From an uncultured Bacilli bacterium (GTDB lineage Bacteria; Bacillota_I; Bacilli_A; RF39; UBA660), in assembly GCA_947629135.1 (NCBI GenBank), contig CANRCN010000001.1, positions 411 to 64,410 of the forward strand: a stretch of 64,000 bases of DNA. Direction: 5' to 3'. Shown one piece after another: positions 7,160 to 61,169 of the stretch. A program made the translations under genes and the position numbers. Positions within the stretch are counted from its first letter, which is position 1, and each line of letters starts with the position of its first letter. The notes beneath the pieces are model-generated. The model had not been told where the DNA came from. It did not search any database and saw nothing but the letters and a program-made list of their open reading frames with translations.

Positions 7160-7167
7160 AATCCCTC

Positions 7168-10328: not shown

Positions 10329-10514
10329 CTAATATAATAGTAAGTATATTCATGTTTATTGTATTTGTGATAGTTAAATAGTGTTTCTTTTGATTATTTA
10401 ATATAAATAATTAAAGTATAGAATTTAATGATTGCTTATTTTGACAATTTATGATATTATAAAGCACTGAATTGAACTTTTTCTAAGCATATGTAGTTAA
10501 TAAAGCGATAGGAT

Positions 10515-35130: not shown

Positions 35131-36373
<1,243 letters not shown>

Positions 36374-38601: not shown

Positions 38602-39993
38602 ATGTCGTTTGCATCAATAGATTTTTTAATATTTTTTATAGTTGTAATATTGGGAACATTAATTATTCAAAAATTTTTCTCTAAAAGAGTGAAAGAAGTA
38701 TTCTTACTTATTGCAAGTTACTTTTTTTATGGATATTGGGATTGGAGATTTTGTTTCCTATTATTATTTGTAACCTTATCTTCGTATTTTACAGCAAAAT
38801 ATAAAGATAAAAAAGGAATATATATAATAGGAATAGTTATACCATTAATTGTACTAGGATTCTTTAAATATTTTAATTTCTTTTTGGAATCAGTATCAAG
38901 TATAATAGGTCATGATTTAGGAATATTAAATATAATTTTACCAGTTGGAATATCATTTTATACATTTCAAGCTTTAAGTTATGTAATTGATGTAAAAAGA
39001 GAAAAGATAGAAGTTGAAGATGACTTTATAAGATTAGCTTTATATTTAAGTTTCTTTCCACAACTTGTTGCGGGACCAATTGTAAGGGCAGCTGATTTCT
39101 TACCTCAATTAAAAGAAGAAAGAAAAGTAAGTTCAGAAAATTTTAAATATGGTATTCAGCTAATGGCATTTGGATTATTCAAGAAGATTGTAATAGCTGA
39201 TCATTTATCAGTTTTTGTAGATGATGTATTTAAAGTACCAGTAGCATTCCATTGGGCAACGATAGTTCTAGCCGTAATTGCTTATTCAATTCAAATATAT
39301 TTTGATTTTTCAGGATATTCTGATATAGCAATTGGATGTGCTAAATGTTTAGGATATGATTTTAATTCTAACTTTAATTTACCATATATTTCTCAAAATG
39401 TAACAGAATTTTGGAGAAGGTGGCATATAAGTCTATCAACATGGTTAAAAGAATATTTATATATTCCTCTAGGAGGAAATAGAAAAGGTAAAGTTAGACA
39501 ATATATCAATTTATTTATAACTATGTTACTTGGTGGATTATGGCATGGAGCAAGTTGGACATTTGTATTTTGGGGTGGTTTAAATGGATTAGCTTTGTGT
39601 ATAGATAAAATGATACCTAAGAAAAAAGAAAAGAATTTATTTGATAAGGTTATTGGTGTAATATTAACTTATACATTTATATGTTTTACATGGATATTCT
39701 TCAGGGCAGATAACTTTACAAATGCATGGGATATAATAAAAGGAATATTTACTTTACAAAAAGGGATAAGTCAACCTTTTGTATGGGCTTTTGTTGCAAT
39801 TATATTATTAGTTATATTTACAATAGGAGCAATTATAAAATCTCATAAGAATAAAGATAAATATGTAGATGGGTATTATCCAATAGTTAATTTAAATACT
39901 GTATTTGGATTAACAATATTCTTTGTTGTAATAGGATTAATTTTTTGTTTAGCTTTTACAGGCGAACAACCATTTGTATATTTTCAATTTTAA
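38602..39993 (+). CDS. MBOAT-family membrane O-acyltransferase (second copy)
   Basis: 'WRRWHISLSTWLKEYLYIPLGGN' MBOAT His motif; start 1 nt after the DltD-like stop. Confidence 0.85.
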   Translation: MSFASIDFLIFFIVVILGTLIIQKFFSKRVKEVFLLIASYFFYGYWDWRFCFLLLFVTLSSYFTAKYKDKKGIYIIGIVIPLIVLGFFKYFNFFLESVSSIIGHDLGILNIILPVGISFYTFQALSYVIDVKREKIEVEDDFIRLALYLSFFPQLVAGPIVRAADFLPQLKEERKVSSENFKYGIQLMAFGLFKKIVIADHLSVFVDDVFKVPVAFHWATIVLAVIAYSIQIYFDFSGYSDIAIGCAKCLGYDFNSNFNLPYISQNVTEFWRRWHISLSTWLKEYLYIPLGGNRKGKVRQYINLFITMLLGGLWHGASWTFVFWGGLNGLALCIDKMIPKKKEKNLFDKVIGVILTYTFICFTWIFFRADNFTNAWDIIKGIFTLQKGISQPFVWAFVAIILLVIFTIGAIIKSHKNKDKYVDGYYPIVNLNTVFGLTIFFVVIGLIFCLAFTGEQPFVYFQF

Positions 39994-40082
39994 ATATATG
40001 AAAAATATTTTAAATTATTATTAGAATTTAATTAGAAAAAATATAAATGAAATTTATTAAAAAATAGAAAGGTATTTAAAAT

Positions 40083-41099
40083 ATGAAAAAAAAGTTAACA
40101 ATTAGTCAATCTAGGGGGGGGCATAGTAAAAAAGAGTATAAAGGTATTGATATAACAAAATTTATTATGGCAATTCTAGTAATTGCTTGTCATGCAAATT
40201 TATATACCAATTATGATGGAACAATAGGAACAATCTATCTTTTGGTACTTAGTTGTGTTGTTCCATATTTCTTTATAACTAATGGTTTCTTTATGTATAA
40301 AGATGAAGAAACCTTTGAAAATAAACTTTGGGATAATCTAAAAAAAATTATTAAATTATATATAATTTGGAATATAATTTATTTACCTATTAGTATTTAT
40401 GATTATGCTGTAAATGGGTATTCTGTTATAAAAGCAATAATTCTTTATATTCGAGATTTTCTGTTTATAGGTGATCACTTTTTTTCTTGGCCACTTTGGT
40501 ATTTACTAGGATTTATATATGCCTTGATAGCATTAATTATATTAAAAAAATTAAAATTAAATGATAAAAAAATATTTATAATTACGATGTTAACCTATAT
40601 ATTTGCAAATGTAATGGAATATTTAACATCTATTGGTTCTAATAATATTGTTGTAAAATTATTTAGTTATGTCTTTGGTGATGGAAGAGTATTTACTGGA
40701 ATATTTTTAGTTACACTTGGAATACTTATAAAAAAATACAATGATAAAATTAAGATATCTAAAAAAATATTATTATTGCTAATTATAGTGTGCTTTGCAA
40801 TATCAGTTATAATTCCAAATAAGATAAGCGAAGTTGGATTATATATATTTCTATTTTTATTAGTCAAAGAACTTAATAATATTAAATTTAATACAATTAA
40901 CTTTAGAAGGTGTAGTACAATATTTTATTTTGTACACATGATTAATTTATTTATATATATGTTAATTGTTGGGATAGATAATACTTATGGTGTTTATGGG
41001 TTTCTAATAACAATAGTTGCTTGTATGGTAGAATCTATTATTATAATATTTATTCAAAATAAGTGGAATCCAAAAATTTTAAAGGAATTGTTTAATTAA
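40083..41099 (+). CDS. acyltransferase-3 (OatA/WecH-like) family membrane O-acyltransferase with in-frame poly-G (G8) at codons 11-13
   Basis: 'KGIDITKFIMAILVIACHA' acyl_transf_3 N-terminal motif, ~10 TM; G8 at 40114-40121 encodes Arg-Gly-Gly in frame (phase-ON). Confidence 0.6.
   Translation: MKKKLTISQSRGGHSKKEYKGIDITKFIMAILVIACHANLYTNYDGTIGTIYLLVLSCVVPYFFITNGFFMYKDEETFENKLWDNLKKIIKLYIIWNIIYLPISIYDYAVNGYSVIKAIILYIRDFLFIGDHFFSWPLWYLLGFIYALIALIILKKLKLNDKKIFIITMLTYIFANVMEYLTSIGSNNIVVKLFSYVFGDGRVFTGIFLVTLGILIKKYNDKIKISKKILLLLIIVCFAISVIIPNKISEVGLYIFLFLLVKELNNIKFNTINFRRCSTIFYFVHMINLFIYMLIVGIDNTYGVYGFLITIVACMVESIIIIFIQNKWNPKILKELFN
40114..40121. repeat. poly-G homopolymer (G8) within coding sequence
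   Basis: direct read. Confidence 0.95.
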
Positions 41100-41118
41100 G
41101 TTTTGTGTATAAGAAGGA

Positions 41119-42300
41119 GTGATAGAAATGATATATATATATGAAGCAAAAAGAAGTCCAATAGGGAAGTTTAAAAAAGGTTTTATAAATACTGATTGCA
41201 GTATGCTTGGAATGCAAGTTGCTAAAAGTATTATTGAAAATACGAAAATTGATGTAAACAAAATTGATAAAGTTATATTAGGAAATGTTTTATCGGCTGG
41301 TTTAGGACAAAATATTGCAAGACAAATATTAATAAATAGTGGAATACCTGATGATAAAACAGCTTATTCTATTAATATGGTTTGTGGAAGTGGAATGAAA
41401 GCTGTTCATGATGCTTTTAATGATATAAAATTAGGAAATGCTCATTGCATTTTAGCAGGTGGAGTTGAAAATATGAGTATGGCTCCATTATTAAAAGATA
41501 AGTACGATGATAATAAAGAGTTAAAGGATAGTATGTTATATGATGCTTTAACGGATGTATTTTCAAATGAGCATATGGGGATAACGGCTGAGAATGTTGC
41601 AGAAAAATATAATGTAACTAGAGAAGATCAAGATAAATTTGCATATGATTCACAACATAAAGTACAAACGGCAATTGAAAATAAAAAGTTTGATGATGAG
41701 ATAGTTCCAATAAAGACTTTTGAAGGAGAAGTAATAAGTTTAGATGAATTTCCAAGATTTAATACTGAAATGGAAAAACTATCAGCTTTAAAACCAGCTT
41801 TTAAAGAAAATGGAACAGTAACTGCTGGAAATGCTTCTGGAATTAATGATGGCTGTGCTTTGTTATTAATTGGAGATGAAACAATTAGTTTAAAACCTAA
41901 AGCTGAAATTATAGATTTTGCTGAAGCTGGATGTGATCCTAATTATATGGGAATGGGACCATTATATGCAATATCTAAATTATTAGAAAAAAATAATTTA
42001 AATATTAATGATATTGATTTATTTGAAATAAACGAAGCCTTTGCTTCTCAAAGTATAGCAGTTATAAGAGAATTATCTAAAAAATACAATATTAATTTAG
42101 AAGAATTTAACTCTAAAATTAATGTCAATGGTGGAGCAATTGCTTTAGGACACCCAGTTGGTGCATCAGGTGCAAGAATTATAACTACTTTAGTTCATGA
42201 AATGAAAAGAAGAAATTCAAAATATGGTGTAGCTTCACTTTGTATAGGTGGTGGTATGGGAATAGCTGTATTATTAAAAAATATGTGTGAGGAGGATTAA
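41119..42300 (+). CDS. acetyl-CoA C-acetyltransferase (thiolase II, PhaA/ThlA-like)
   Basis: Thiolase signatures: N-terminal 'EAKRSPIGKF', catalytic Cys 'NMVCGSGMKAV', C-terminal 'NVNGGAIALGHPVGASGARI' and 'SLCIGGGMG'. Confidence 0.85.
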   Translation: MIEMIYIYEAKRSPIGKFKKGFINTDCSMLGMQVAKSIIENTKIDVNKIDKVILGNVLSAGLGQNIARQILINSGIPDDKTAYSINMVCGSGMKAVHDAFNDIKLGNAHCILAGGVENMSMAPLLKDKYDDNKELKDSMLYDALTDVFSNEHMGITAENVAEKYNVTREDQDKFAYDSQHKVQTAIENKKFDDEIVPIKTFEGEVISLDEFPRFNTEMEKLSALKPAFKENGTVTAGNASGINDGCALLLIGDETISLKPKAEIIDFAEAGCDPNYMGMGPLYAISKLLEKNNLNINDIDLFEINEAFASQSIAVIRELSKKYNINLEEFNSKINVNGGAIALGHPVGASGARIITTLVHEMKRRNSKYGVASLCIGGGMGIAVLLKNMCEED

Positions 42301-42301
42301 T

Positions 42302-43015
42302 ATGTTAGAAGGAAAAATTGCAATAGTAACTGGAGCATCTCGTGGTATCGGATTAGAAATAGCAAAGTTGTTTACAAAAGAGGGAGCAAAAGTTATTGGT
42401 ACATATAATCATAATAAAACAGATATAGATGGTGTAGATTTTTATAAATTAGATGTTTCTAACAGAGAAGAAGTTAAAACATTTGTAGATACTATTATTA
42501 ACAAGTATAATAAAATAGATATTCTTGTTAATAATGCTGGAATAACAGCTGATGCATTAACTAAAAAAATGTCTGATGAAATGTTTGATAAGGTAATAAA
42601 TACTAATCTTACAGGAACCTATAATATAACTAAACTAATTGGTCCAATTATGCAAGATAATCATAGTGGTAGTATAATTAATATTACATCAATAGTTGGT
42701 ATATATGGAAATATTGGACAAGTAAATTATGCAGCTTCAAAAAGCGGTATTATAGGAATGACCCATACTTGGGCAAAAGAATTTGCTATGAAAGATGGAA
42801 ATGTTAGAGTTAATGCAATAGCACCAGGATATACAATGACAGAGATGCTTAAAACAGTTCCAGAAGAATTATTAGACAAGTTTAAAAGTATGACTTTATT
42901 GAAAAGATTAGCTGAACCTGAAGATATAGCTAATGCAGCATTATTTTTAGCAAGTGACATGGCTAGTTATATAACAGATGAAATATTAAATGTTAATGGT
43001 GGCATGAAATTATAA
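42302..43015 (+). CDS. SDR-family 3-oxoacyl reductase (FabG/PhaB-like acetoacetyl-CoA reductase)
   Basis: 'TGASRGIG' cofactor motif, 'NAG' and 'YAASK' catalytic motif; GAGGAGG RBS 6 nt before ATG 42302. Confidence 0.85.
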   Translation: MLEGKIAIVTGASRGIGLEIAKLFTKEGAKVIGTYNHNKTDIDGVDFYKLDVSNREEVKTFVDTIINKYNKIDILVNNAGITADALTKKMSDEMFDKVINTNLTGTYNITKLIGPIMQDNHSGSIINITSIVGIYGNIGQVNYAASKSGIIGMTHTWAKEFAMKDGNVRVNAIAPGYTMTEMLKTVPEELLDKFKSMTLLKRLAEPEDIANAALFLASDMASYITDEILNVNGGMKL

Positions 43016-43051: not shown

Positions 43052-44094
43052 GTGAAAAAGAATATAGAAAAAGTTAACAATAAGTCACCTCGGGGGGGGG
43101 GGCTTATAAAAAATATATAATAATATTTAAATTAATATTATCTTGCTTTATTGCATTTATAATATTAAATTTGTTTTGTATTTTTTATTATAATATACCA
43201 GTACATTCTACTTCTAAAGATGGTGCAACTGATTACGTTTGGGAACCAAACAAGTTTTATTCACGTTGGACTGAAGGCTTTGGATATGGAAGAACGAACA
43301 ATGAAGGTTATTATGATTATAAAAAATATAAAAAGAGCGATAATGTTGATATATTAGTTATGGGATCTTCACATATGGAAGCAGCTCAAATACAACAAAA
43401 TAAATCTACATCAGGATTGCTTGATAATATGTTAAAAGATTATTATGTTTATAATATAGGAATATCGGGTCATACATTTATAACCTGTGTTAGTAATCTT
43501 GAAGCTGCTATTACTAAATATAATCCAAATAAATATATTATTATTGAAACTAACACAGTTACTTTTTCAGATAGTGATTTGAACAATGCATTGAACAATT
43601 CAGTTGAAGAAATTCCTTCTTATGATGGAGGTGTAATTGGTATACTACAGCAAAATCAACTTTTAAGATTATTATATCATCAAGCAGAGTCTTTTCTTAA
43701 TTTAGAAAATGAAGGAGATATAATTCCAAATAGTCAAACTAACTTTGATACTAATTTTAACTTATTAAATCAACTTTTTATAAAAATGCAAGAAAAAGCA
43801 GAAAAAAATAATATTAAAATAATAATAATGTATCATCCAAGTACAACTTTGAATAAAGATGGAAGTTTAAATTTGTCAAGTGAAAATGAAAATATAGAAG
43901 AATTTTCGAAATTATGTAAAGAAAATGGAATATATTTTCTTGATATGAGTGATAGATTTAGAGAAGAATATGAAAAGAATTATATTCTACCATATGGATT
44001 TAGTAATACATCAGTAGGCACAGGTCATTTAAATAAATATGGACATGAAATGATTGCTGAAGAATTATATAAATTAATCAAGGAGGAAAAGTAG
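43052..44094 (+). pseudogene. second DltD/AlgX-like SGNH-fold paralogue, again with a poly-G tract between the predicted start (GTG 43052) and the TM anchor, out of frame in this sequence
   Basis: GTG 43052 reads VKKNIEKVNNKSPRGGG into G11 and stops at 43120; the long ORF (open from 43084, track 43171..44094) is in the +2 frame; the C-terminal 60 aa are near-identical to the 37641 paralogue; G12 or G9 would fuse them. Confidence 0.45.
43092..43102. repeat. poly-G homopolymer (G11)
   Basis: direct read. Confidence 0.95.
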
Positions 44095-44588: not shown

Positions 44589-46625
44589 ATGAAAACTATA
44601 TTAAAAAAAATTGATATCAAATTAGTTATTGCAGTTATTATACATTTTTTAATAACGTTTATTACAGATAGAAATATATTTATTTTTAAAGAAATAAATA
44701 TTACTAATTATATTTTGTGTAAAGTAGTATTGTTAGGATTATTAATATTATTATGGAAGTTTATATTTAAATTAATTCATAAAGATAAGAATGCTGTTGA
44801 TTATTTTAAAAAGTTTTTAATATACATAATTCCAATTTCTATTTTATTAGTTTTGTGTTGGCCAGGTAATTGGTTTGGACCAGATGTTGCTAATTTTTAT
44901 CAATTTGCAATTCGTGGCAATTTTGTATATTATCTTAATTACTTATCATCAGTTTTTTATATTATAGGTTTAATGTTCTTTCCAGTTCCAAGTGGTCCTA
45001 TTATTCTTTTAGCTATTTTATTTGGAATTGTATTTTCTTATTTAACTAAAAATCTATATGATATTTATAAAAGTAAACTTGTTTATTTAATGTTAATTCC
45101 ATTCTTTATGTTAAATACTTTATTTTATACTTTTTATGCTAATAGACCAATTATTTTTGGAATTATTTATTTATTATTAATTAGTATTATTTTACTTGAT
45201 AAAATTAAAAATAATAAATTAACTAATAAAAAAATTTTAGCTTTAATTATTTTAACAGGAGTCGCAGCCTATTGGAGAACTGAGAGTATTTATTTAATTC
45301 TTGCTATTCCTTTATTTATTTTTATAGTCTATAAATTAAAAGTAAATTTTAAAAACATTGCTAAGATCTTTGGTTTTACTATTTTAAGTTTTCTAGCTAT
45401 ATCATTACCTCAAAAAATATATGAATATAATTTTCATGATTATCCATTATCATCACGTAATGCAGCTATATATATTTTACCTTTATCTTATATGTTAACT
45501 AAAGATTTAAAGGGGAAAAATTTAGAAAGTAATTTAGCTAAAATTGATAAAGTTATAGGAATAGAAGAAATGAAAAAATATCCATCCTATAATGATACTT
45601 ATTGTATTTGGGAAAGTAATTGTAAAAAATTAGATTATACTAAAGAAGAATATAAAGAGTTTCAAAAAGCTTATTTTGATGTAATAATTAATAATTTTCC
45701 TGAATATTTAAAAACAAGAATGTTAACATTTGTAGGTGCAAGTGGTCTTTATAATAATACTTTTACAACTAAGAATTTATATAATGAAAATATAGAGACT
45801 TTATTTGAAAGAAAAGATACTAAACCATTTATTAATTATAAAATAAGGAAAGTTGTTTATTCAATTTTAGAAGGAAGAATTTCTGATAAAGGAAGATCTA
45901 TTCTTCCATATAATCTAACTAATAATTTAATAATACCTTTGTTATTTATTGGAATATTATTTATATATTCAATTGTAAAAAAGAAGTTATTTTACTTTTT
46001 GTTATCTGGGATGTTGATTGGTCATACTACGATAGTTTTCTTTACAGCTCCTGCTAACTATGCAATGTATTATTTTAATATTTATTTAACTGGATTAGTA
46101 GTTGGAGTTATGTTTATAATTGATTATATATATTATAAAAAGAATAAAAAATGTTATTTATTAGATATAAAGAAAAAAAATAAAAAGAAAGTAAAAAGGG
46201 AGGAATCAAAGATAAAAAAATTAATAGTTCAAGCTTTTAAGTTCTTTGGAATATCTGGAATAGGATGGTTAATTGATTTTACAACTTATACAGTTATGAC
46301 AAGTTTACTAAAAATAGATATCATGATTGCTAATATTATAAGTTCATTTTTAGGAATTACTTTTGTCTATTTAGTTTCAACGAGAAAATTATTTCAGAAT
46401 AATAGTAAATATAATTTAAAAGTAAAATATATTGCTTATATTTTATATCAAGTTGTTTTTGTATTATTAGTTTCTTATATAATGACATTTTTAAAAGAAT
46501 ACTTATTAGGATTTGATGTTAAATTAATAAGTGATTATGTCAATATAATAACTAAAATTGTAGTAACTCCATTTACAATGGTAATAAATTTTATAGTTAT
46601 GAAAAATTTAATAGAGAGGATTTAA
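44589..46625 (+). CDS. large polytopic GT-C-like membrane protein (GtrC/YfhO-like by context) fused to a C-terminal GtrA-family domain
   Basis: ~14 TM helices; first 520 aa paralogous to 50747..52330 (identical blocks 'WPGNWFGPDVANFY', 'PVPSGPIILLAILFGIVFSYLTKNLYDIYKSKLVYLMLIPFFMLNTLFYTFYANRPII'); last ~140 aa have 4 TM with GtrA-like pattern; a GT2 gene follows immediately. Confidence 0.5.
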   Translation: MKTILKKIDIKLVIAVIIHFLITFITDRNIFIFKEINITNYILCKVVLLGLLILLWKFIFKLIHKDKNAVDYFKKFLIYIIPISILLVLCWPGNWFGPDVANFYQFAIRGNFVYYLNYLSSVFYIIGLMFFPVPSGPIILLAILFGIVFSYLTKNLYDIYKSKLVYLMLIPFFMLNTLFYTFYANRPIIFGIIYLLLISIILLDKIKNNKLTNKKILALIILTGVAAYWRTESIYLILAIPLFIFIVYKLKVNFKNIAKIFGFTILSFLAISLPQKIYEYNFHDYPLSSRNAAIYILPLSYMLTKDLKGKNLESNLAKIDKVIGIEEMKKYPSYNDTYCIWESNCKKLDYTKEEYKEFQKAYFDVIINNFPEYLKTRMLTFVGASGLYNNTFTTKNLYNENIETLFERKDTKPFINYKIRKVVYSILEGRISDKGRSILPYNLTNNLIIPLLFIGILFIYSIVKKKLFYFLLSGMLIGHTTIVFFTAPANYAMYYFNIYLTGLVVGVMFIIDYIYYKKNKKCYLLDIKKKNKKKVKREESKIKKLIVQAFKFFGISGIGWLIDFTTYTVMTSLLKIDIMIANIISSFLGITFVYLVSTRKLFQNNSKYNLKVKYIAYILYQVVFVLLVSYIMTFLKEYLLGFDVKLISDYVNIITKIVVTPFTMVINFIVMKNLIERI

Positions 46626-46629
46626 TTGT

Positions 46630-47439
46630 ATGGAAAAGATAATGGTTTTTATACCAATGTATAATTGTGAAAAACAAATAGTTAGAGTTTTAAAGCAATT
46701 TGATAAAGAGGTTTTAAAATATATTGAAGAAATTGTAATTATTAATAATAGAAGTACTGATAATGGAGAAGAAGCAGTTATTAATTTTAGTAAAGAAAAT
46801 AAAATAGATAAGAAACTAACTTTACTTAGAAATGATGAAAATTATAATTTAGGTGGATCTCACAAAGTAGCTTTTGATTATGCAATTAAGAATAACTATG
46901 ATTATTTAATTGTTTTACATGGTGATGATCAAGGAAGTATTCATGATTTGTTACCATATCTTAAAAATAAAGAATATGAAAATTATGATTCTTTACTTGG
47001 TTCAAGATTTTTAAAAGAATCTAAACTAGAAGGATATTCTAAGTTTAGAACTTTTGGAAACATTGTTTATAATTTTGCTTTTTCCATATTACTTGGGAAT
47101 AAAGTAAAAGATTTAGGTGCAGGATTAAATATGTATAAAGTTGAATCTTTAAAAAATAAATATTATATTAAATATCCTGATAGATTAACTTTTAATTGTT
47201 ATATGTTACTTGCTATTAAATCTTATAAACAAAATGTAAAATATTTTCCAATAACATGGAGAGAAGATGATCAAGTTTCTAATGTTAAAATGGTATCACA
47301 AGCTTTTAAAACAATAATGATACCAATTAAATATTTTTTTAGAAGAAGTAAGTATTTAGAAAGTGAGCATAGAGATAAGATAATAGAAGATTATACTGCA
47401 AGTTGTATATATAGTATTGGAGGTAAAAATGGAAAATAA
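46630..47439 (+). CDS. GT2-family glycosyltransferase, GtrB/DPM1-like without C-terminal TM helices
   Basis: 'MVFIPMYNCEKQIVRVLKQF' GT-A start, 'LHGDDQGS' DxD-type motif. Confidence 0.65.
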   Translation: MEKIMVFIPMYNCEKQIVRVLKQFDKEVLKYIEEIVIINNRSTDNGEEAVINFSKENKIDKKLTLLRNDENYNLGGSHKVAFDYAIKNNYDYLIVLHGDDQGSIHDLLPYLKNKEYENYDSLLGSRFLKESKLEGYSKFRTFGNIVYNFAFSILLGNKVKDLGAGLNMYKVESLKNKYYIKYPDRLTFNCYMLLAIKSYKQNVKYFPITWREDDQVSNVKMVSQAFKTIMIPIKYFFRRSKYLESEHRDKIIEDYTASCIYSIGGKNGK

Positions 47440-48175
47440 GGTACATTTAATCATGCCTATGGGAGGAGCAGGCTCAAGATTCTTTAAAAATGGATATGTT
47501 ATGCCTAAACCATTAATTGAAATAAATGGTAAACCATTTTTATATTGGTCAACTATGTCAATTAAAAAATATATAGATTTAGAAGATATAACTTTTGTTA
47601 TTCTTCAAGAACATATTGATAATTTTGAAATTGATAAAGTTATTTTAAAATATTTTCCTGATGCAAAATTTGTAGTATTGAAGGAAATGTTTAAAGAAGG
47701 ACCTGTATTAACTTGTAAGGCAGGACTCGAGAATATTAATGATGATCTTCCAATTATTTTTAATGATTGTGATCATTATTTTAAGAGTAGTAGTTTTAAT
47801 GATTTTTGCAATAGTGAAGATAAAAGTTTGGTTGATGGAGCTTTAGTAACTTTTGAAGCTGATGATCCTAAGTTTAGCTATGTTGAATTAGACGAAAATG
47901 GAAATGCTAAACGAACTGTTGAAAAAGAAGTTATTAGTAATGATGCGATTTGTGGAGCATATTATGTTAAAAATAAAAAAATATTCTTAGATAGTGTTTC
48001 AGAGTACATGGATAATTGTAATTACAAAGAATTTTTTGTAAGTGGTATTTATAACATTATGATAAAAAATGGTTTAACTGTAAAAAACTTTAGAGTAGAT
48101 TTTCATATTCCATTTGGAACTCCTGAAGAATATGAACTTGCTAAAGAAAAAGTAGAATTTGAGGAAATAAAATGA
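47429..48175 (+). CDS. sugar-phosphate/alcohol-phosphate nucleotidyltransferase (NTP_transferase fold, LicC/RmlA-like)
   Basis: 'LIMPMGGAGSRF...MPKPLIEINGKPFL' nucleotidyltransferase G-rich loop; GGAGG RBS 5 nt before ATG 47429. Confidence 0.6.
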   Translation: MENKVHLIMPMGGAGSRFFKNGYVMPKPLIEINGKPFLYWSTMSIKKYIDLEDITFVILQEHIDNFEIDKVILKYFPDAKFVVLKEMFKEGPVLTCKAGLENINDDLPIIFNDCDHYFKSSSFNDFCNSEDKSLVDGALVTFEADDPKFSYVELDENGNAKRTVEKEVISNDAICGAYYVKNKKIFLDSVSEYMDNCNYKEFFVSGIYNIMIKNGLTVKNFRVDFHIPFGTPEEYELAKEKVEFEEIK

Positions 48176-50061
48176 TTTACTTCACATTAATTCTTGCAAT
48201 TATCTTCATGGTAATTGGTCATTATTTTAAAGTTTATAGGTTAAAACAATTTATAGAAATTTATGAAAAGCCAAATACTCCTAGATTACTTCAAGCTTTA
48301 TCTATAAGTTATGTTATCAATTTCTTTGTTCCGTTTAGATTAGGAGACATCTTTAGAGCTTGGTGGGCTGGAAGAAAGATGAAAAATGGAGTATCATTTT
48401 CTTTGACAACGGTTATTGTTGATAGAATTTTAGATGTTATAGTAGTTGCTTTAATCTTTTTTAGTTTTTATCTATTAGGCTTTAAAGAAAAAGTAATTGA
48501 AAGTTCTATTTATTTTTATATAATAGGTGGTTCAGTTTTATTAATATTATTATTTTTAGGAATGAAATTTAGTAAATATATAAAAATATCAATTATGAAA
48601 TTTGCTAGAATATTTAATACTAATATTGAACTTAGGATATTAAAATTTACTTGGTATATTATCACAGCCTTTAAAGACTTAATATCAAAACTTAAAAAAA
48701 GCGAATTGTTAATTAATACAATTGTTATGTGGTTCTTTTATTTAGGTTCATATTCTTTATTTGCTTTAACAATGCGATTTTCAGGAAGTAATACAAGTTT
48801 AGTTGATATATTTACTTTATTATTTTCAAAGAATAGTTTTGATCTTTCAACTGGTGCTTTTTCAATTAGTAATTATTATATGGTAATTTATTTATTAGTG
48901 CCATTAGTTATTTTGTTAATTTTATCTTTATTTAAGACTAAAGAAAAAGGTAAAAATTATGTAAAAAATAAATATTTAGAGTTATTACCTCAATTAAATT
49001 CTTCAGATAAATTAGTTTTTTTAGAAGGATATTTCAGTGCTCGTTCTAGAGAATATTTTAATAATTATGTTATGTTAAATCGAGATATTTCTATTATTCA
49101 AGATTTTTCAGCAGGTAGTAATGCTACAACTATGCTTTGTACTTATGATAATAAAATGTTTTTTAGAAAATATAGTTTTGGTAAAGATTCTTCTAAATTA
49201 TATGAACAAATTAAATGGTTAAAAGAACATCAAAAAGTTATACCTTTAACTAAGGTTTTAAATGTTAAAAGAGGCAATGAATATTGTTCTTATGATATGC
49301 CATATTTTAATAATGCTATTAGTTGCTTTAACTATGTTCATTCTACACCTATTAATAAATCATGGCCAGTTCTTGAAAAGGCTCTTAATACTATAGGTGA
49401 AAATTTACATACTAAAAATTTAGTAAATGCTGATATTAAAAAAATAGATGAATATATAGAAAGTAAAGTTATAAATAATTTAAAAAAAATTGAAAATGGT
49501 AATTATATTAAACCTTTACTTAAATATAATTATTTAATTATAAATGGTAAAAAGTATCATAATTTAAATTATTTTATGAAATATTTAACAAAAGAATACT
49601 TAGAAGAGTTGTTTAAAAATGATATGTATTCTGATATTCATGGGGATTTTACAATTGAAAATATTATTTGTTTTAATGATAAAGATGATTTTTATATAAT
49701 AGATCCAAATACTGGTAATGTTCATGATTCTCCAAATCTTGATTATGCTAAGTTATTACAATCTTTACATGGTGGATATGAATTTTTAATGAATACAAAA
49801 AGTGTTTCAGTTTCTGAAAATAATATTAATTATTTATTTACTAAATCAGCTGTATATGATGAATTGTATAATAAATATCATAAGTATTTATGTGATAAGT
49901 TTGATAGAATAAAAGTAAAAAGTATTTATTTTCATGAAATTATTCATTGGTTAAGGTTATTACCTTATAAAATAGAAAAAAATGGTGAAAGACAAGTATT
50001 ATTTTATGCAGGACTTATTATAGTATTAAATGATGTAATAGAAATGTTTGGTGATGATTAA
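48172..50061 (+). CDS. fusion protein: N-terminal flippase-like (LPG-synthase-TM/UPF0104) membrane domain + C-terminal choline/aminoglycoside-kinase-fold (APH/ChoK) kinase
   Basis: N-terminus 'RLGDIFRAWWAGRK' with ~8 TM; C-terminus 'DIHGDFTIENIICFNDKDDFYIIDPN' matches the H-G-D-x-x-x-x-N ... D-x-N catalytic/Mg loops of ChoK/APH kinases. Confidence 0.55.
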   Translation: MIYFTLILAIIFMVIGHYFKVYRLKQFIEIYEKPNTPRLLQALSISYVINFFVPFRLGDIFRAWWAGRKMKNGVSFSLTTVIVDRILDVIVVALIFFSFYLLGFKEKVIESSIYFYIIGGSVLLILLFLGMKFSKYIKISIMKFARIFNTNIELRILKFTWYIITAFKDLISKLKKSELLINTIVMWFFYLGSYSLFALTMRFSGSNTSLVDIFTLLFSKNSFDLSTGAFSISNYYMVIYLLVPLVILLILSLFKTKEKGKNYVKNKYLELLPQLNSSDKLVFLEGYFSARSREYFNNYVMLNRDISIIQDFSAGSNATTMLCTYDNKMFFRKYSFGKDSSKLYEQIKWLKEHQKVIPLTKVLNVKRGNEYCSYDMPYFNNAISCFNYVHSTPINKSWPVLEKALNTIGENLHTKNLVNADIKKIDEYIESKVINNLKKIENGNYIKPLLKYNYLIINGKKYHNLNYFMKYLTKEYLEELFKNDMYSDIHGDFTIENIICFNDKDDFYIIDPNTGNVHDSPNLDYAKLLQSLHGGYEFLMNTKSVSVSENNINYLFTKSAVYDELYNKYHKYLCDKFDRIKVKSIYFHEIIHWLRLLPYKIEKNGERQVLFYAGLIIVLNDVIEMFGDD

Positions 50062-50615
50062 TGAAAAAATTAGCAATGATTGATTTAGATGGAACTTTGT
50101 TTGATACTAACGAAGTAAATTATTATGCTTATAAAGAATCTTTAAATGAAAAAGGATTTGATCTTGAGTATGAACATTATAAAAATGAATGTAATGGTAG
50201 ATATTATAAAGTATTTTTACCTGATATAGTTAATAATGATGAAGAGGTTATGGAATATGTTCATAAAAGAAAAAAAGAATTATATGAAAAATATTTGGAT
50301 AAGGCTATTGTAAATGAACATTTATTTAATATTTTAGAAAGTATAAAAGATAAATACTATTTAGCTTTAGTTACAACAGCTTCTAAAAAGAATACTTATG
50401 ATATTTTAAAATATTTTAAAAAAGTTGAATTATTTGATTTAATTTTAACTCATGATGATATTGAAAAGCCAAAGCCAGATCCTGAAGGATTCAAAAAAGC
50501 TTTAGATTATTTTAAGATTGATGCTAAAGATGCAATCGTTTTTGAAGATTCTAATGTTGGAATAGAAGCAGCTAAGAAAGTTGGAGCTACAATTTTTAAA
50601 ATAGAAAATTTTTAG
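50061..50615 (+). CDS. HAD-IA hydrolase (beta-phosphoglucomutase/phosphatase-like)
   Basis: 'MIDLDGTLFDT' HAD motif I and 'FEDSNVGIEAAKKVG' motif IV. Confidence 0.7.
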   Translation: MKKLAMIDLDGTLFDTNEVNYYAYKESLNEKGFDLEYEHYKNECNGRYYKVFLPDIVNNDEEVMEYVHKRKKELYEKYLDKAIVNEHLFNILESIKDKYYLALVTTASKKNTYDILKYFKKVELFDLILTHDDIEKPKPDPEGFKKALDYFKIDAKDAIVFEDSNVGIEAAKKVGATIFKIENF

Positions 50616-50746: not shown

Positions 50747-52330
50747 ATGAAAAAAAAATTAAAAAAAATTAATTTTAAATTGATAATTATTGTTTTAATA
50801 CATTTTGTAATAACATTTTTTACAGATAAAAATATATTTGTTTTTTCTGATATAAATATTATTAATTATATTTTTTGTAAAATTATATTTTTATTAGTTT
50901 TATATTTATTTTGGAAATTTATCTTTAAATTAATAGACAAAGATAAAGTAATGATTAGTTATTTTAAAAAGTTTTTAATATATATGATACCTATTAGTAT
51001 ATTATTAATTTTATGTTGGCCAGGTAATTGGTTTGGGCCAGATGTTGCTAATTTTTATGAATATGCAATTCATGGTAATTTCTTATATTATCTTAATTAT
51101 TTATCATCAGTTTTTTATATGATAGGTTTTATGTTTTTTCCAGTTCCAAGTGGACCTATTATTCTTTTAGCTATTTTATTTGGAATTGTATTTTCTTATT
51201 TAACTAAAAATCTATATGATATTTATAAAAGTAAACTTGTTTATTTAATGTTAATTCCATTCTTTATGTTAAATACCTTATTTTATACTTTTTATGCTAA
51301 TAGACCAATTATATATGGAGTTTTTTACTTGCTATTAATTAGTATTATTTTACTTGATAAAATTAGAAATAACAAATTAACAAATAAAAAATTTCTTGTA
51401 TTAATGATTTTAACAGGAATATCTTCCTATTTTAGAAGTGAAAGTATTTATTTAATTCTTGCTATTCCTTTATTTATTTTTATAGTTTATAAATTAAAAG
51501 TAAATGTTAAAAACATTGCTAAGATATTTGGATTTACAGTTTTAGCTTTTTTAATAGTTGCAATGCCTCAAAAGATATATGAATATAAAAATGTTGAAGA
51601 TCAATATACTCGTAATTTACCAATATATATTACACCTTTATCTTATATGTTAACTAAGGATTTAAAAGGTAAAAATTTAGAAAGTGATTTAGCTAAAATC
51701 GATAAAGTTATTGGAATAGAGGAGATGAAAGAATATCCATCTTATATAGATGCTTTTTGTGTTTGGAATAATGATTGTTTAAAGACAGGCTATACTAAGG
51801 AAGAATATAAGGAGTTTCAAAAAGCTTATTTTGATGTAATAAAAAATAATATACCAGAATTTATAATGACTAAAACTTTAACTTTTGCTAATGCAAGTGG
51901 GGTTTATGGAAGTACTTTTACAACTAAAAATTTATATAATGAAGATAATCAAATGTTATATAAGAGAAAAGATACTAAACCTTTTATAAATTATAAAGTA
52001 AGAAGATTTACATATTCACTTCTTGAAGGAAGATTAACTGATAAATGGCAACCTAATATTTTATATAGAATTTTTAATAATTTATTTGTATCATTCTTAA
52101 TCATTGGAATAATATTTATATATTCAATTATTAAAAAGAAATTATTTTACTTTTTATTATGTGGAATGTTAATTGGACATGCTGTTATAGTTTTCTTTAC
52201 AGCACCAGCTAGTTATTTTATGTATTATTTTAATGTTTATTTATGTGGGTTAGTTCTTGGAGTAATATTTGTAATAGATTATATATATTATAAAAAACAT
52301 AAAAAAAGTTATGTTTTAAAGAACAAGTAG
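50747..52330 (+). CDS. GT-C-like polytopic membrane protein, paralogue of 44589 without the GtrA fusion
   Basis: 527 aa, long identical blocks with the 44589 product. Confidence 0.5.
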   Translation: MKKKLKKINFKLIIIVLIHFVITFFTDKNIFVFSDINIINYIFCKIIFLLVLYLFWKFIFKLIDKDKVMISYFKKFLIYMIPISILLILCWPGNWFGPDVANFYEYAIHGNFLYYLNYLSSVFYMIGFMFFPVPSGPIILLAILFGIVFSYLTKNLYDIYKSKLVYLMLIPFFMLNTLFYTFYANRPIIYGVFYLLLISIILLDKIRNNKLTNKKFLVLMILTGISSYFRSESIYLILAIPLFIFIVYKLKVNVKNIAKIFGFTVLAFLIVAMPQKIYEYKNVEDQYTRNLPIYITPLSYMLTKDLKGKNLESDLAKIDKVIGIEEMKEYPSYIDAFCVWNNDCLKTGYTKEEYKEFQKAYFDVIKNNIPEFIMTKTLTFANASGVYGSTFTTKNLYNEDNQMLYKRKDTKPFINYKVRRFTYSLLEGRLTDKWQPNILYRIFNNLFVSFLIIGIIFIYSIIKKKLFYFLLCGMLIGHAVIVFFTAPASYFMYYFNVYLCGLVLGVIFVIDYIYYKKHKKSYVLKNK

Positions 52331-53359: not shown

Positions 53360-53866
53360 TTACCAATATTTACTGATATAATCTTTAATTAAATTATAAC
53401 GTTCAAATACTGATAATACTATTTTTTTATCACTTGTAATTGTTAAAAATTCTTTTTTAGTAACAAATTTAATATCTGAAACTTCTTGAGTTTGTAATTT
53501 TAATTTAGTAAGATCTACTTTGATATTGCTAATATAAATATCAACAAATTGGTGTTTATAAAGTGTAGTAGTTATTAGTTTAAAATCTTTATTAGTTAAA
53601 TTTAAACCAATTTCTTCTTGTATTTCTCGAATTAGAGTTTCTTGACTTTCTTCATTTGCTAATGAACATCCACCTGGAACTTCCCATTCTAAAGGATGAG
53701 ATTTATTTATACTTCTCTTAGTAATTAATAACTTATGATTATTAAATATCCAAATTTCAACTCCAACGTTATATTCTTCTTGAAGTAAAAGAGTATTTCT
53801 TTCTTTAGTATAGTTTAATTTTTCACGATTACTATTATAAACATCAAATAATTCCATTAAAATCAC
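53360..53866 (-). CDS. Nudix hydrolase
   Basis: Nudix box 'PGGCSLANEESQETLIREIQEEIGL' (G-x5-E-x7-R-E-x2-E-E-x-G). Confidence 0.7.
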   Translation of the reverse strand: MILMELFDVYNSNREKLNYTKERNTLLLQEEYNVGVEIWIFNNHKLLITKRSINKSHPLEWEVPGGCSLANEESQETLIREIQEEIGLNLTNKDFKLITTTLYKHQFVDIYISNIKVDLTKLKLQTQEVSDIKFVTKKEFLTITSDKKIVLSVFERYNLIKDYISKYW

Positions 53867-53929: not shown

Positions 53930-54361
53930 ATGGATATAATTGTTAAAACTCGTGTTGGATCTTATGGAATTATTATTCACGAAGAGAAAATAGCTTTAGT
54001 AAAAAAAGCTAAAGGTGGTTATAAAGGAAAGCTTGATTTACCTGGTGGGGGAGTAGAGCATGATGAAAATTTAGTTGAAGCTTTAAAAAGAGAAATTAAG
54101 GAAGAAGCTGGAATAGATATTAGTAGTTATAAATTACTTGATGCTACCACTACTAATATTAAATGGAAAATGGCTGAAGAAGTAATGGAAGATTTACAAC
54201 AAATAGGAATTTTATATGTATGTGAGACTAAAGATTTTAATTTAAAAAGTGATGCTGATGGATTGGATTCAGAAGGTGCTAATTGGTATGTAATAAAAGA
54301 TTTAAATAAAGATAATTTAACCCCTTTTGCTAGATATGCTTTAGAGATGTTAGGATATTAA
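53930..54361 (+). CDS. Nudix hydrolase
   Basis: Nudix box 'PGGGVEHDENLVEALKREIKEEAGI'. Confidence 0.7.
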   Translation: MDIIVKTRVGSYGIIIHEEKIALVKKAKGGYKGKLDLPGGGVEHDENLVEALKREIKEEAGIDISSYKLLDATTTNIKWKMAEEVMEDLQQIGILYVCETKDFNLKSDADGLDSEGANWYVIKDLNKDNLTPFARYALEMLGY

Positions 54362-54362: not shown

Positions 54363-54839
54363 ATGGATATAAAAATAGAAACTGAAGAATTTAATTTTAA
54401 ATTTAGAGTGTCTGGAGTAATTATAAATAACGATAAAGTTTTATTAGTTGATATGGATAAAAGTGGATTTCTTTGCTTTCCTGGGGGATATGTTGAATTA
54501 GGCGAAGAAAGTCAAAAAGCTATTGAAAGAGAAGTTTTAGAAGAAGTAAATATTAAAGTTAAAGTTTTGAAATATTTAGGTGTTATAGAGAACTATTTTA
54601 TTAATAAGTATCAAAGAAAAATTCATGAAATTTGTTTTTATTATTTATTAGAACCTGTTGATGAAATAGAAACTTTAAATTTTAGTTTAGTAGAAAAAGG
54701 TGAATATCGTGATACAATGCTAGATTTTAAGTGGATTAATATAGAAAATTTAGATAAATATGATATAAGGCCTAAAATTATGAAAGATATCTTAAAGGAA
54801 AATAAGATAGAGTTTAAACATTTAGTAGTAAAAGAATAA
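54363..54839 (+). CDS. Nudix hydrolase
   Basis: Nudix box 'PGGYVELGEESQKAIEREVLEEVNI'. Confidence 0.7.
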   Translation: MDIKIETEEFNFKFRVSGVIINNDKVLLVDMDKSGFLCFPGGYVELGEESQKAIEREVLEEVNIKVKVLKYLGVIENYFINKYQRKIHEICFYYLLEPVDEIETLNFSLVEKGEYRDTMLDFKWINIENLDKYDIRPKIMKDILKENKIEFKHLVVKE

Positions 54840-57235: not shown

Positions 57236-57667
57236 ATGAATAGATTGATAGCTCATGGTTTAATAAAAATAAATGGTAAGTATTTATTGATTAAAAGAAC
57301 TAAAGAAAAAAGAGAAAAAGCTAATTTGTTACCTGATTATTGGGATATACCAGGTGGAATGGTAGAATTAGGGGAGTTACCAAGGGAGGCTGTTGTTAGA
57401 GAAACCAAAGAGGAAGTTAACTTGGATATTGAAGTTAAAGATATTTTGCATGAAGATAGTAATTATGATAAAGAAAAGGATATTGTATTTACTAGATTAG
57501 TATATTGGTGTGAATTATTGGATAGCGAAGATGCTTCTAATATTGTTTTACAAGAAGATGAGCATAGTGAATATAGACTTGTTAATGATTTAGAAGAAAT
57601 GAAAAATGAAAAAATAGTAGATTATTTAATTGATACTATTAGAAATTTAAATAAAAAATATAAGTAA
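57236..57667 (+). CDS. Nudix hydrolase
   Basis: Nudix box 'PGGMVELGELPREAVVRETKEEVNL'. Confidence 0.7.
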   Translation: MNRLIAHGLIKINGKYLLIKRTKEKREKANLLPDYWDIPGGMVELGELPREAVVRETKEEVNLDIEVKDILHEDSNYDKEKDIVFTRLVYWCELLDSEDASNIVLQEDEHSEYRLVNDLEEMKNEKIVDYLIDTIRNLNKKYK

Positions 57668-60835: not shown

Positions 60836-60867
60836 TTTAGTAAAAAATTATAAATAAGTGTTTGAAA

Positions 60868-60890
60868 GGGAATAAAAATTCTCTTTTTTT
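60868..60890 (+). terminator. possible Rho-independent terminator after the AIPR gene
   Basis: stem 'gggaat'/'attctc' (one G-U), AAAA loop, T7. Confidence 0.35.
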
Positions 60891-61169
60891 ATACTTTTTA
60901 GAAAAAATTTAAACCATTAAGATAGTTTTTAAATGGTATTAGAGCTATTACCTAACAAGAAAATGAGTAGTCTTTTAATCAAATATAAACATAAAATTTA
61001 TGGAGGTGAATTTTAAAAAATGAATATAAAAGAAACTTTCGATAATGATAAAAATTTGGTTGATTTGATAGAAGAATATTTAAAAATAATGCTATTTAAA
61101 GAGAGAGACTCCTAGTTATGAATTATAGTGAATATACTTGTGAAGTTATGCATTTAAAAGGAGTTGTAA

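Follow-up and report, generated by a model that had tools for sequence, protein, structure and literature searches.

Genes and domains of the trio

The stretch of DNA analysed here, a 64,000-nucleotide window of contig CANRCN010000001.1 from an uncultured Bacilli bacterium (GC content about 23%), carries on its plus strand three adjacent genes that encode a nucleotidyltransferase (NT), a protein joining a flippase-like membrane domain to a kinase domain, and a HAD hydrolase (Table 1). The initial annotation had picked out 47429–50615 as a trio that activates a substituent by linking it to a nucleotide. Three open reading frames (ORFs) do lie there, but instead of standing alone they form the conserved core of a larger cassette of five to six genes that covers 44589–50615 or extends to 52330.

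The mechanically called NT frame spans 47417–48175 from a TTG at 47417. Because a GGAGG stands 7 nt before the ATG at 47429, this ATG is the likely true start, in agreement with the first annotation. The NT gene meets the fusion gene (629 residues, 48172–50061) in an ATGA overlap, the fusion gene meets the HAD gene in a TAATG overlap, and the three are predicted to be translationally coupled. Upstream, the gene for a family-2 glycosyltransferase (GT2) overlaps the NT gene and starts 4 bp past the end of the gene for a 678-residue polytopic protein. These five packed genes form one unit, 44589–50615, with a gap of 495 bp before it and 131 bp after it. In DNA of 23% GC, a scan for promoters and terminators was uninformative: it counted 94 promoter-like sites where 98.5 were expected, and it detected no terminator.

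Table 1. The three genes of the trio and the genes beside them (positions in the window).
Feature	Position	Strand	Basis or remark
Polytopic membrane protein with C-terminal GtrA domain, 678 residues	44589..46625	+	first gene of cassette; putative extracytoplasmic transferase with small flippase
Family-2 glycosyltransferase (GT2), 269 residues, no transmembrane segment	46630..47439	+	predicted polyprenyl-phosphate sugar synthase
Nucleotidyltransferase (NT), sugar-1-phosphate type (predicted), 248 residues	47429..48175	+	PF00483, PDB matches, motifs
Fusion, N-terminal PF03706 membrane domain, residues 1 to about 264	48172..48963	+	Pfam match
Fusion, C-terminal domain of predicted APH/choline-kinase fold, residues 265-629	48964..50061	+	AlphaFold2 model, Foldseek
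HAD-IA hydrolase (predicted), beta-phosphoglucomutase/YqaB group, 184 residues	50061..50615	+	Pfam HAD_2, NCBIfam, PDB matches
Polytopic membrane protein, 527 residues, putative second extracytoplasmic transferase	50747..52330	+	paralogy to 678-residue protein
Acyl_transf_3 membrane O-acyltransferase, 326 residues	52358..53338	+	PF01757, 64.2 bits

The NT passes the threshold of PF00483 (28.5 bits against a cut-off of 21.2), and its NCBIfam matches, each under its own cut-off, are to RmlA-long, HddC and GlmU. In the PDB it is nearest 4evw, a nucleoside diphosphate (NDP)-sugar pyrophosphorylase from Vibrio (E 1e-13), followed by HddC 6jq8; weak matches also reach MobA-like and IspD-type cytidylyltransferase models. 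The motifs MPMGGAGSRF...PKPLI, NDCDH and FGTPEEY are kept in 78 orthologues, a proteobacterial one included, and GGAGSRF and PKPLI supply the G-x-G-x-R ... K signature of sugar-1-phosphate nucleotidyltransferases. With RmlA-long, HddC, GlmU and 4evw as best matches, we found no membership in the LicC-type CTP:phosphocholine cytidylyltransferases, and the protein is predicted to be a sugar-1-phosphate-type nucleotidyltransferase that resembles these enzymes rather than LicC.

The HAD scores 103.5 bits against HAD_2 (PF13419). Its best NCBIfam match is the beta-phosphoglucomutase (beta-PGM) family hydrolase model TIGR02009, at 87.5 bits against a curated cut-off of 153, and it stays below both the beta-PGM equivalog TIGR01990 (73.4 bits, cut-off 189.4) and the MupP model NF009696 (27.7 bits, cut-off 359). 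PDB matches include the sugar phosphatase TM_1254, the phosphatase domain of MtlD, beta-PGM and the pyrophosphatase BT2127. Together with its DxD nucleophile (D8/D10), motif II VTTASKKN, K138 and E162-D163, these matches fit a predicted capped HAD-IA enzyme nearest the beta-PGM/YqaB group and sugar phosphatases. In a comparison of 81 orthologues with a beta-PGM reference sequence, the beta-PGM residues D8, D10, T16, K76, (S)ASK(K)N, K145, E169 and D170 are kept; among those that hold the distal phosphate, K71 of the HAD corresponds to beta-PGM K76 and S108-K-K-N111 to S116-K117-N118.

Residues 4–217 of the fusion pass the threshold of PF03706 (LPG_synthase_TM; 49 bits against a cut-off of 33.4), and the same model matches 72 of 73 fusion homologues. 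Hydrophobic segments reach residue 260 and are followed directly by the lysine-rich stretch KTKEKGKNYVKNKY; by hydropathy alone, the transmembrane (TM) topology of the domain is not reliably resolved. We assign this N-terminal domain, by its profile match, to the PF03706/UPF0104/'PplT' family, the flippase-type domain of MprF.

The C-terminal domain is far less visible to sequence searches. Pfam (E ≤ 0.01) and NCBIfam returned no family for it in the window protein except a faint Bud32 match, PF01636 (APH) and PF01633 (Choline_kinase) matched none of 73 homologues at E ≤ 1, where only weak TCAD9 and YrbL matches appeared, no AmgK- or NahK-type model matched, and neither phmmer nor a 73-sequence profile matched a kinase in the PDB. 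The searches against choline-kinase, APH and NahK-type models that the initial annotation had proposed as a check came back empty for this domain, and its fold was settled by structure prediction only. An AlphaFold2 model of residues 265–629 (predicted local distance difference test score, pLDDT, 91.9; predicted template-modelling score, pTM, 0.90) gave 391 Foldseek matches in the PDB at E ≤ 1e-3. The leaders were APH(3')-Ia/IIIa, a fructosamine-3-kinase homologue, mycobacterial maltokinase (4u94), pneumococcal LicA (4r7b) and NahK (4wh1), all at E of about 1e-7 with template-modelling scores of about 0.45–0.50 and none clearly closest. From this model we place the domain with high confidence in the APH/choline-kinase branch of the bilobal protein-kinase-like (PKL) fold, as a family without a Pfam model.

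The key kinase residues, namely the G-loop SAGSN (313–317), K333, H490-G-D492-FTIE-N497 and D511-P-N513, are invariant in 118 full-length homologues, and the catalytic ones persist in a Pseudochrobactrum homologue at 26% identity. K333 probably lies on strand beta3, as the ATP-binding lysine. Loss of the catalytic Asp/Asn pair had been named as an observation that would speak against a kinase; instead, D492 and N497 are invariant, along with D511 and K333. The overall composition first proposed, an APH/choline-kinase-fold kinase with an NTP-transferase and a beta-PGM-like HAD, is thus borne out by Pfam, NCBIfam and the combination of AlphaFold2 and Foldseek.

The fusion has more than 1000 full-length homologues in a 90%-clustered database, annotated only as 'flippase-like' or 'LPG synthase TM domain', and the kinase domain alone has 892 clusters at 50% identity (E ≤ 1e-3). 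The joining of the kinase to an LPG-synthase-type domain, called unusual in the initial annotation, is real by its PF03706 match but not peculiar to this genome, since most members of the family (about 900 clusters at 50% identity) are built in this way.

A cassette conserved and rearranged across genomes

We collected 82 loci, 80 from a scan of one genome per species and two by exact look-up, called ORFs in each and used the window proteins as queries against them; the 51 loci flanked by 5 kb or more on each side are referred to as complete (individual loci are given as L numbers). The nearest relatives, at 90–93% identity, come from metagenome-assembled genomes (MAGs) of uncultured Bacilli from rabbit gut, and such an organism is the probable source of the window. 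Further carriers belong to Lachnospiraceae, Oscillospiraceae, Clostridium, Paenibacillus, Gemmiger and Johnsonella, with a few Treponema, Spirochaetaceae and Desulfovibrionaceae MAGs. Culturable species that carry it include Clostridium beijerinckii, C. saccharoperbutylacetonicum and Paenibacillus hunanensis.

The HAD was detected in 81 of the 82 loci, always directly after the fusion, the exception being a contig that ends right after the fusion. Every complete locus has the NT, the HAD and an adjacent small GT2, either the orthologue or a second type (51/51 each). Because the same order recurs in these 82 loci of other genomes, the arrangement of the trio is not due to chance. Loci of the 'Mycoplasma sp. 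CAG:956' type (L019, 9674–13616) carry a different small GT2 of 236 residues; there, an LtaS/sulfatase-like protein and a YidC-TagF-like fusion follow the cassette and hint at teichoic-acid-type acceptors.

Standalone kinases of 322–362 residues make up 15 of the 150 best matches of the kinase domain. Their loci show the order short-chain dehydrogenase/reductase (SDR)-NT-kinase-HAD (L083) or NT-kinase (L088), and L083 has no obvious membrane relay. Since these kinases keep the same gene order, the chemistry of the NT, kinase and HAD is soluble and modular, and it can do without the membrane domain, common though this addition is.

The GT2 of the window matches PF00535 (57.9 bits). A profile of 30 orthologues weakly matches the PDB (E 9e-8 to 2e-3), with the Dol-P-Man synthase of Pyrococcus, 5mlz, best (E 9e-8) and ArnC and GtrB next, and weak NCBIfam matches are to AglJ, a Dol-P-hexose transferase, ArnC and PpgS. 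Its maximum hydropathy over 19 residues is 0.91, which indicates no TM segment. We predict that it is a GtrB/DPMS/ArnC-like polyprenyl-phosphate sugar synthase.

In front of the GT2, the 678-residue protein has about 15 hydrophobic segments, an N-terminal part that no Pfam model matches and, at residues 551–674, a GtrA domain (PF04138; 36.9 bits against a cut-off of 26.1); orthologues at L003 and L006 carry the same fusion. Its N-terminal region of about 530 residues is 75% identical in alignment to the 527-residue protein encoded after the HAD, and the pair stems from a recent duplication, with GtrA joined to one of the copies. Of the related loci, L003 and L006 have the fused form upstream and L005, L007, L009, L014 and L037 the unfused form downstream; both forms occur in the window. 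In the 527-residue family, P92, G93, D99, R186, R230 and E232 are invariant. We regard the 678-residue protein as a small flippase joined to a putative GT-C-like transferase that would act outside the cytoplasm, and the 527-residue protein as a putative second such transferase that would use the same lipid-linked sugar.

These membrane components vary between loci. A GtrA was found in 31 of the 51 complete loci and a recognisable member of the 527-residue family in 25, while all 26 others have a different large polytopic protein nearby, often adjacent (380–1100 residues, 7–21 hydrophobic segments). Directly after the HAD, a pair of ArnE/ArnF-like EamA proteins of about 115–120 residues each occurs at L001 (10606–11302), L021 (9789–10473), L035 (9765–10449) and L042 (9673–10339). 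The Paenibacillus loci among these (L001, L021, L035) have no detectable GtrA, and the presence of the pair where GtrA was not detected suggests that the flippase component is interchangeable. Neither a GtrA nor such a pair was found in 17 of the 51 complete loci. The Acyl_transf_3 gene behind the 527-residue protein had no detectable orthologue beside the cassette in the 82 loci, and an Acyl_transf_3 gene also follows the HAD in the Clostridium locus L002; the 326-residue acyltransferase is possibly associated with the cassette, outside its conserved core.

Directly upstream of the NT, 22 of the 82 loci encode an extended SDR of about 340 residues. Its best model is GalE, followed by the dehydratases LegB and RmlB, the epimerase TviC and, in fifth place, ADP-heptose 6-epimerase. 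It looks like an NDP-sugar epimerase, because T...YxxxK is kept but 'NAMYEN' stands where 4,6-dehydratases have 'TDEVYG', and the Asp-Glu dehydratase pair is missing. At L051 (5425–7185), a single ORF of 586 residues fuses a GalE-like SDR to the cassette NT, direct evidence that both enzymes serve one pathway.

The cassette is horizontally mobile. In the alphaproteobacterium Pseudochrobactrum algeriensis, the genes for GtrA, GT2, NT, PplT-kinase fusion and HAD, in this order, occupy 6125–10529 of a 33.6-kb plasmid (L091, NZ_CP075350.1), and a divergent 532-residue hypothetical membrane protein is encoded in front of GtrA. This copy adjoins rfbACBD, an IS3 transposase and an integrase and was found on plasmids of three isolates. 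Phages seldom carry it: 3 of 2.9 million IMG/VR contigs do, as does a single unannotated 'Bacteriophage sp.' record of 6.6 kb. The plasmid copy is the clearer sign of mobility. Two copies occur in the MAG CANPZX01, one with the epimerase and the other without (L011, L056), and two on a single 1.32-Mb contig of Clostridium chromiireducens (P0066, P0076); two copies per genome imply two decorating sugars or two acceptors. Elsewhere the cassettes sit within polysaccharide, O-antigen or rhamnan loci. Direct observations are the folds and motifs, the conserved synteny and the way in which modules differ from locus to locus.

A proposed route from sugar to decorated polysaccharide

We propose, with moderate confidence, that the trio is the NDP-sugar supply arm of a self-contained mobile cassette that decorates a surface polysaccharide with a side-chain sugar on the outer side of the membrane, much as three-component Gtr-type systems do. 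We read the cassette as Gtr-type because its donor genes are constant, its small flippases are interchangeable (GtrA or an ArnE/F-like pair) and its large polytopic protein is variable.

Folds, motifs and gene order are the basis of the scheme that follows, in which all enzymatic activities, the identities of sugar and nucleotide, the order of kinase and HAD and the part played by the PplT domain are inferred. In the cytoplasm, the APH-fold kinase domain would phosphorylate a sugar, most likely at the anomeric position, a choice made because all APH-fold sugar kinases known to us (NahK, AmgK, MtnK and maltokinase) act there. The HAD would then handle the phosphate, preferably by taking the second phosphate off a sugar bisphosphate, as GmhB does; alternatively, it might dephosphorylate a sugar-6-phosphate upstream of the kinase, as MupP does, act as a mutase or remove pyrophosphate. 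The NT would turn the sugar-1-phosphate into an NDP-sugar, which the GalE-like epimerase would alter in about a quarter of the cassettes. At the inner face of the membrane, the TM-less GT2 would load the sugar on undecaprenyl phosphate, with the PplT domain perhaps docking or scaffolding this step, or flipping. GtrA, here fused to the 678-residue protein, would flip the lipid-linked sugar, and the 678- and 527-residue polytopic proteins would finally move it onto the capsule made by the Wzy-type locus upstream.

The HAD must have a role in this pathway, because the kinase-HAD pair is universal and translationally coupled. We favour a bisphosphate substrate because the distal-phosphate residues of beta-PGM are largely kept. 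On the precedent of HddA-GmhB-HddC, we tentatively suggest that the HAD takes a non-anomeric phosphate off a sugar bisphosphate that the kinase would make from a sugar-6-phosphate. More doubtfully, it might free the sugar from a sugar-6-phosphate ahead of the kinase, as in MupP-AmgK-MurU (PMC5371407). A phosphomutase, with beta-PGM as precedent, seems unlikely, and we give equally little weight to the minor alternative of a BT2127-like pyrophosphatase that would pull the NT reaction forward.

A kinase paired with an NT is also the logic of LicA and LicC, which the initial annotation had offered side by side with salvage to NDP-sugars. Along that route, the kinase would phosphorylate choline, ethanolamine or a small alcohol, the NT would make a CDP-alcohol and a phospho-alcohol would be put on the polymer; the position of LicA (4r7b, TMq 0.50) among the best structural matches and the weak similarity of the NT to MobA-like and IspD-type cytidylyltransferase models would fit. 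We favour the NDP-sugar half of the original proposal over phosphocholine because the NT is of the sugar-1-phosphate type, a GalE-like SDR lies beside or is fused to it, and a GT2 is always adjacent. Neither LicD nor LicB was found among the 48 ORFs that we Pfam-scanned at 10.5–62.8 kb, in line with the earlier remark that no LicD lies nearby, nor in the related loci inspected. The top scores of the NT are to sugar-1-phosphate nucleotidyltransferases, an NDP-sugar-type epimerase is its neighbour in 22 loci and shares an ORF with it in one, and the universal neighbour, a DPMS/ArnC-like GT2, is a user of NDP-sugars. The kinase moreover has no sequence similarity to choline-kinase models, and a LicA/LicC-type pathway would leave the HAD without a role. 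Taken together, these observations make the phospho-alcohol route very unlikely.

The fusion of the kinase to a lipid-handling membrane domain could also mean that it acts on a lipid or a glycan, in the manner of undecaprenol kinase or WaaP/POMK, with the membrane domain presenting the substrate and the NT and HAD only loosely connected. Its weak sequence matches, to the atypical kinase-like TCAD9 and YrbL and none to sugar kinases, would be compatible with this. However, soluble standalone kinases keep the NT-kinase-HAD order, the coupling to NT and HAD is universal and translational, and the positively charged linker and the need for ATP put the kinase domain in the cytoplasm. A kinase for lipids or glycans is, in our estimate, highly improbable.

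Several observations weigh against a sugar-supplying, Gtr-type cassette. A supply arm with its own kinase, HAD and NT would be redundant for common sugars, and the kinase model resembles LicA, a choline enzyme, as well as it does sugar kinases; since the fold is equally LicA-like, our preference for a sugar is drawn from the context. In the HAD orthologues, H20 and R49 of the beta-PGM reference are replaced by an invariant N and Y. The flippase-type domain is fused to the kinase and not to the GT2, for which there is no precedent-based explanation. GtrB, ArnC and CsbB have TM helices at the C-terminus that are missing from the GT2, which could instead be an ordinary cytoplasmic glycosyltransferase. 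Finally, Pfam searches with 30 members of the 527-residue family and a profile search of the PDB matched nothing, and the AlphaFold2 model of the 527-residue protein (pLDDT 92) had no significant Foldseek match in the PDB, with E-values all >0.3.

The matches of highest probability to this last model are nevertheless GT-C proteins (ALG12 0.69, PIG-U 0.60, ALG3 0.51, AftA 0.33), and a GT-C fold for the 527- and 678-residue proteins is plausible but unproven. An acceptor step carried out by adjacent GT2 and GT-C genes had been suggested from the start; conserved synteny backs the involvement of these neighbours, while Foldseek lends the 'GT-C' label itself weak support. In a purely cytoplasmic pathway, the GT2 would add its sugar to a lipid-linked repeat unit, and the membrane neighbours would be a polymerase, a ligase or an acyltransferase helper. 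A short, TM-less and weakly DPMS/ArnC-like GT2 (E 9e-8 to 2e-3) would suit such a pathway, as would the unproven GT-C fold of the neighbours and the standalone-kinase locus L083 with its lack of an obvious membrane relay. The fusion of GtrA to a polytopic protein in the window, L003 and L006 speaks against it, as does the swapping of GtrA and ArnE/F-like flippases between loci, and polytopic proteins that co-vary are hard to explain without a lipid-linked monosaccharide crossing the membrane. We therefore assign the cytoplasmic pathway a low probability.

For the PplT domain, three roles come into question. It could tether the soluble enzymes and the TM-less GT2 to the membrane; it could be a translocase of the lipid-linked sugar, with 17 of the 51 complete loci showing no other small flippase; less likely, it is an uptake device. 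PF03706/PplT proteins are known or proposed to flip lipids that a partner makes in the inner leaflet (bioRxiv 10.1101/2022.03.11.483950; PMC12713373), and by parallel with MprF, GpgSDF of Pseudomonas and HexSDF of C. difficile, the cassette might be a glycolipid module in which the GT2 glycosylates a membrane glycerolipid with the NDP-sugar of the trio and the PplT domain flips the product, a membrane lipid. The GT2 without a TM segment of its own and the 17 complete loci without a GtrA or an ArnE/F-like pair would be in keeping with this. Most loci, however, do have GtrA or ArnE/F-type flippases, which are typical of undecaprenyl-phosphate-sugar systems, every complete locus has a large polytopic membrane protein, and the cassettes lie inside polysaccharide, O-antigen or rhamnan loci. 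The GT2 profile is nearest polyprenyl-phosphate glycosyltransferases, and GpgS, the partner enzyme in Pseudomonas, is a GT4 and not a GT2. A glycolipid product accordingly strikes us as improbable.

More speculatively, the PplT-kinase protein may be a membrane-coupled sugar-activation machine. It would capture or take up an exogenous sugar from the host, the diet or cell-wall turnover for phosphorylation, or translocate the undecaprenyl-phosphate-sugar made by the TM-less GT2, and a metabolon with the NT and HAD would channel an otherwise unavailable sugar onto the capsule. Such a machine, if real, would mean that the MprF/PplT family handles polyprenyl-linked glycans in addition to phospholipids, and would bring with it a new sugar-kinase family and possibly a non-canonical route via a sugar 1,x-bisphosphate.

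In gut bacteria, sensitivity to phages, serotype and recognition by the host depend on the side chains of surface glycans. Among gut Firmicutes the cassette is common, with carriers in MAGs from rabbit, ruminants and humans and in Clostridium, Lachnospiraceae, Oscillospiraceae and Paenibacillus; it reaches Proteobacteria via a plasmid, and its parts are annotated only generically. Should the Gtr-type reading with its own sugar supply be correct, the cassette would be a portable serotype-conversion module that could install a sugar which the recipient cannot activate. It would also offer a genetic handle on a new family of sugar kinases (about 900 clusters at 50% identity), on a non-phospholipid role of PplT/MprF domains and on unrecognised polytopic putative glycosyltransferases, with a possible use in glycoengineering as a self-contained decoration unit.

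Setting in the window and relation to known systems

In the window, the cassette lies at the distal end of a Wzy-type polysaccharide locus that runs on one strand from about 10.5 to 53.3 kb. Genes for regulation and initiation (Wzz/CpsC, CpsD, CpsB, CapD, DegT and a Bac_transf initiating transferase) are accompanied by several GT4 genes, a pyruvyl transferase, a Wzx flippase, two ATP-grasp genes, a UDP-glucose dehydrogenase, MBOAT and Acyl_transf_3 acyltransferases and a thiolase with a ketoreductase. The MBOAT, Acyl_transf_3, thiolase (41119–42300) and ketoacyl-reductase-type SDR (42287–43015) genes at 38602–43015 suggest acyl decoration of the polymer, possibly of a 3-hydroxybutyryl type. 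Two overlapping ORFs in different frames, with a Fer4 and an FrhB N-terminal domain (35131–35526) and an FrhB C-terminal domain (35474–36373), may be one split or frameshifted gene; they adjoin a nitroreductase-family gene in the same locus as the pyruvyl transferase. Four ORFs of 307–409 residues have no Pfam match (23100–24329, 28292–29419, 37641–38600 and 43171–44094), and the first, with about 10 hydrophobic segments, may be the Wzy polymerase.

Downstream lie four NUDIX genes (53360–53866 on the minus strand, 53930–54361, 54363–54839 and 57236–57667), which we rejected as cassette members since they are not conserved beside it in the 82 loci; at L083, a NUDIX gene directly follows the HAD. 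Further on, at 59102–62756, an AIPR (abortive-infection-type) protein and a large serine recombinase look like a mobile or defence islet.

Among known systems, the Gtr type is one in which a GT2 loads a sugar from an NDP-sugar on undecaprenyl phosphate; once the loaded lipid has been flipped across the membrane, a GT-C enzyme attaches its sugar to the completed polymer (PMC8035078, PMC9574508, PMC11127046). Examples are GtrA/GtrB/GtrV of Shigella and Salmonella phages, CsbB/GtcA/YfhO, GacI-L and Csd of Lactococcus (PMC8035078, PMC9574508). The cassette shares with them a small GT2 akin to polyprenyl-phosphate glycosyltransferases, a GtrA flippase and a large polytopic protein, a setting in or beside polysaccharide loci and mobility; common to both, too, are constant donor genes next to a variable membrane protein specific for the acceptor. 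Known Gtr-type systems, however, use housekeeping UDP-sugars, or phosphoribosyl pyrophosphate in the pentofuranose variant (PMC11127046), whereas the cassette includes a dedicated kinase, NT and HAD, joined at some loci by an epimerase. Its GT2 lacks TM helices, its polytopic partner is not of a recognised GT-C family, and in most cassettes a PF03706 domain is an obligatory extra.

That domain links the cassette to the PplT (UPF0104/PF03706) family, which includes the flippase domain of MprF, GpgF and YbhN (bioRxiv 10.1101/2022.03.11.483950; PMC12713373). The N-terminus of the fusion passes PF03706, and PplT domains are likewise known next to or fused with inner-leaflet enzymes, in MprF, GpgF and many other fusions, but here a small-molecule kinase takes the place of a lipid-modifying enzyme, many loci have small flippases of their own besides, and no lipid substrate is evident for the PplT domain of the fusion.

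For the activation of the sugar, a close parallel is MupP-AmgK-MurU, which recycles peptidoglycan sugar in Pseudomonas (PMC5371407, PMC5371409). There, as in our scheme, an NDP-sugar is reached without a phosphomutase, through a phosphatase of the HAD-IA type, an anomeric sugar kinase with APH fold and a sugar-1-phosphate NT. The cassette nevertheless lacks membership at the level of sequence (27.7 against 359 bits for MupP), and it is an operon in glycan decoration, with its kinase fused to a membrane domain and its product directed to a GT2 and not to MurA-F-type synthesis.

HddA, GmhB and HddC form the pathway to GDP-D-glycero-alpha-D-manno-heptose, with a kinase of the GHMP family (HddA) and a HAD-IIIA phosphatase that has no cap (GmhB). 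A kinase, a HAD phosphatase and an NT there work via a sugar bisphosphate, HddC is the second-best match of the NT, and the optional SDR matches the ADP-heptose 6-epimerase model, more weakly and in fifth place. By contrast, the kinase of the cassette has an APH fold, its HAD is a capped HAD-IA enzyme, a GmhA isomerase is missing and the scores stay far under the cut-offs. LicA and LicC share with the cassette an APH/choline-kinase-fold kinase followed by a nucleotidyltransferase, LicA being a top structural neighbour, but no LicB or LicD was found among the 48 scanned ORFs, the NT is of the predicted sugar-1-phosphate type, an epimerase and a GT2 are associated, and the HAD is obligatory.

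Salvage of free sugars to surface glycans or UDP-N-acetylhexosamine is carried out by Fkp of Bacteroides, a fucose-salvage enzyme with a GHMP kinase, and through NahK, the APH-fold kinase of the lacto-N-biose/galacto-N-biose pathway of Bifidobacterium. Like the cassette, which is concentrated in gut bacteria, these routes combine a kinase, a pyrophosphorylase and optionally a 4-epimerase to turn a free sugar into a nucleotide sugar. Their kinases belong to other families, however, NahK having no detectable sequence similarity to the fusion kinase, and they have no membrane fusion, HAD or link to a three-component relay.

The cassette proteins match only generic families (PF00483, PF00535, PF03706, PF04138, HAD_2 and the PKL fold). 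Each of the specific equivalogs that we tested (LicC, MupP, beta-PGM, HddC and APH/ChoK) gave no membership, and in the literature we found no paper describing this cassette. It appears to be an uncharacterised system in which Gtr-type decoration is joined to a sugar activation like that of MupP/AmgK/MurU or HddA/GmhB/HddC.

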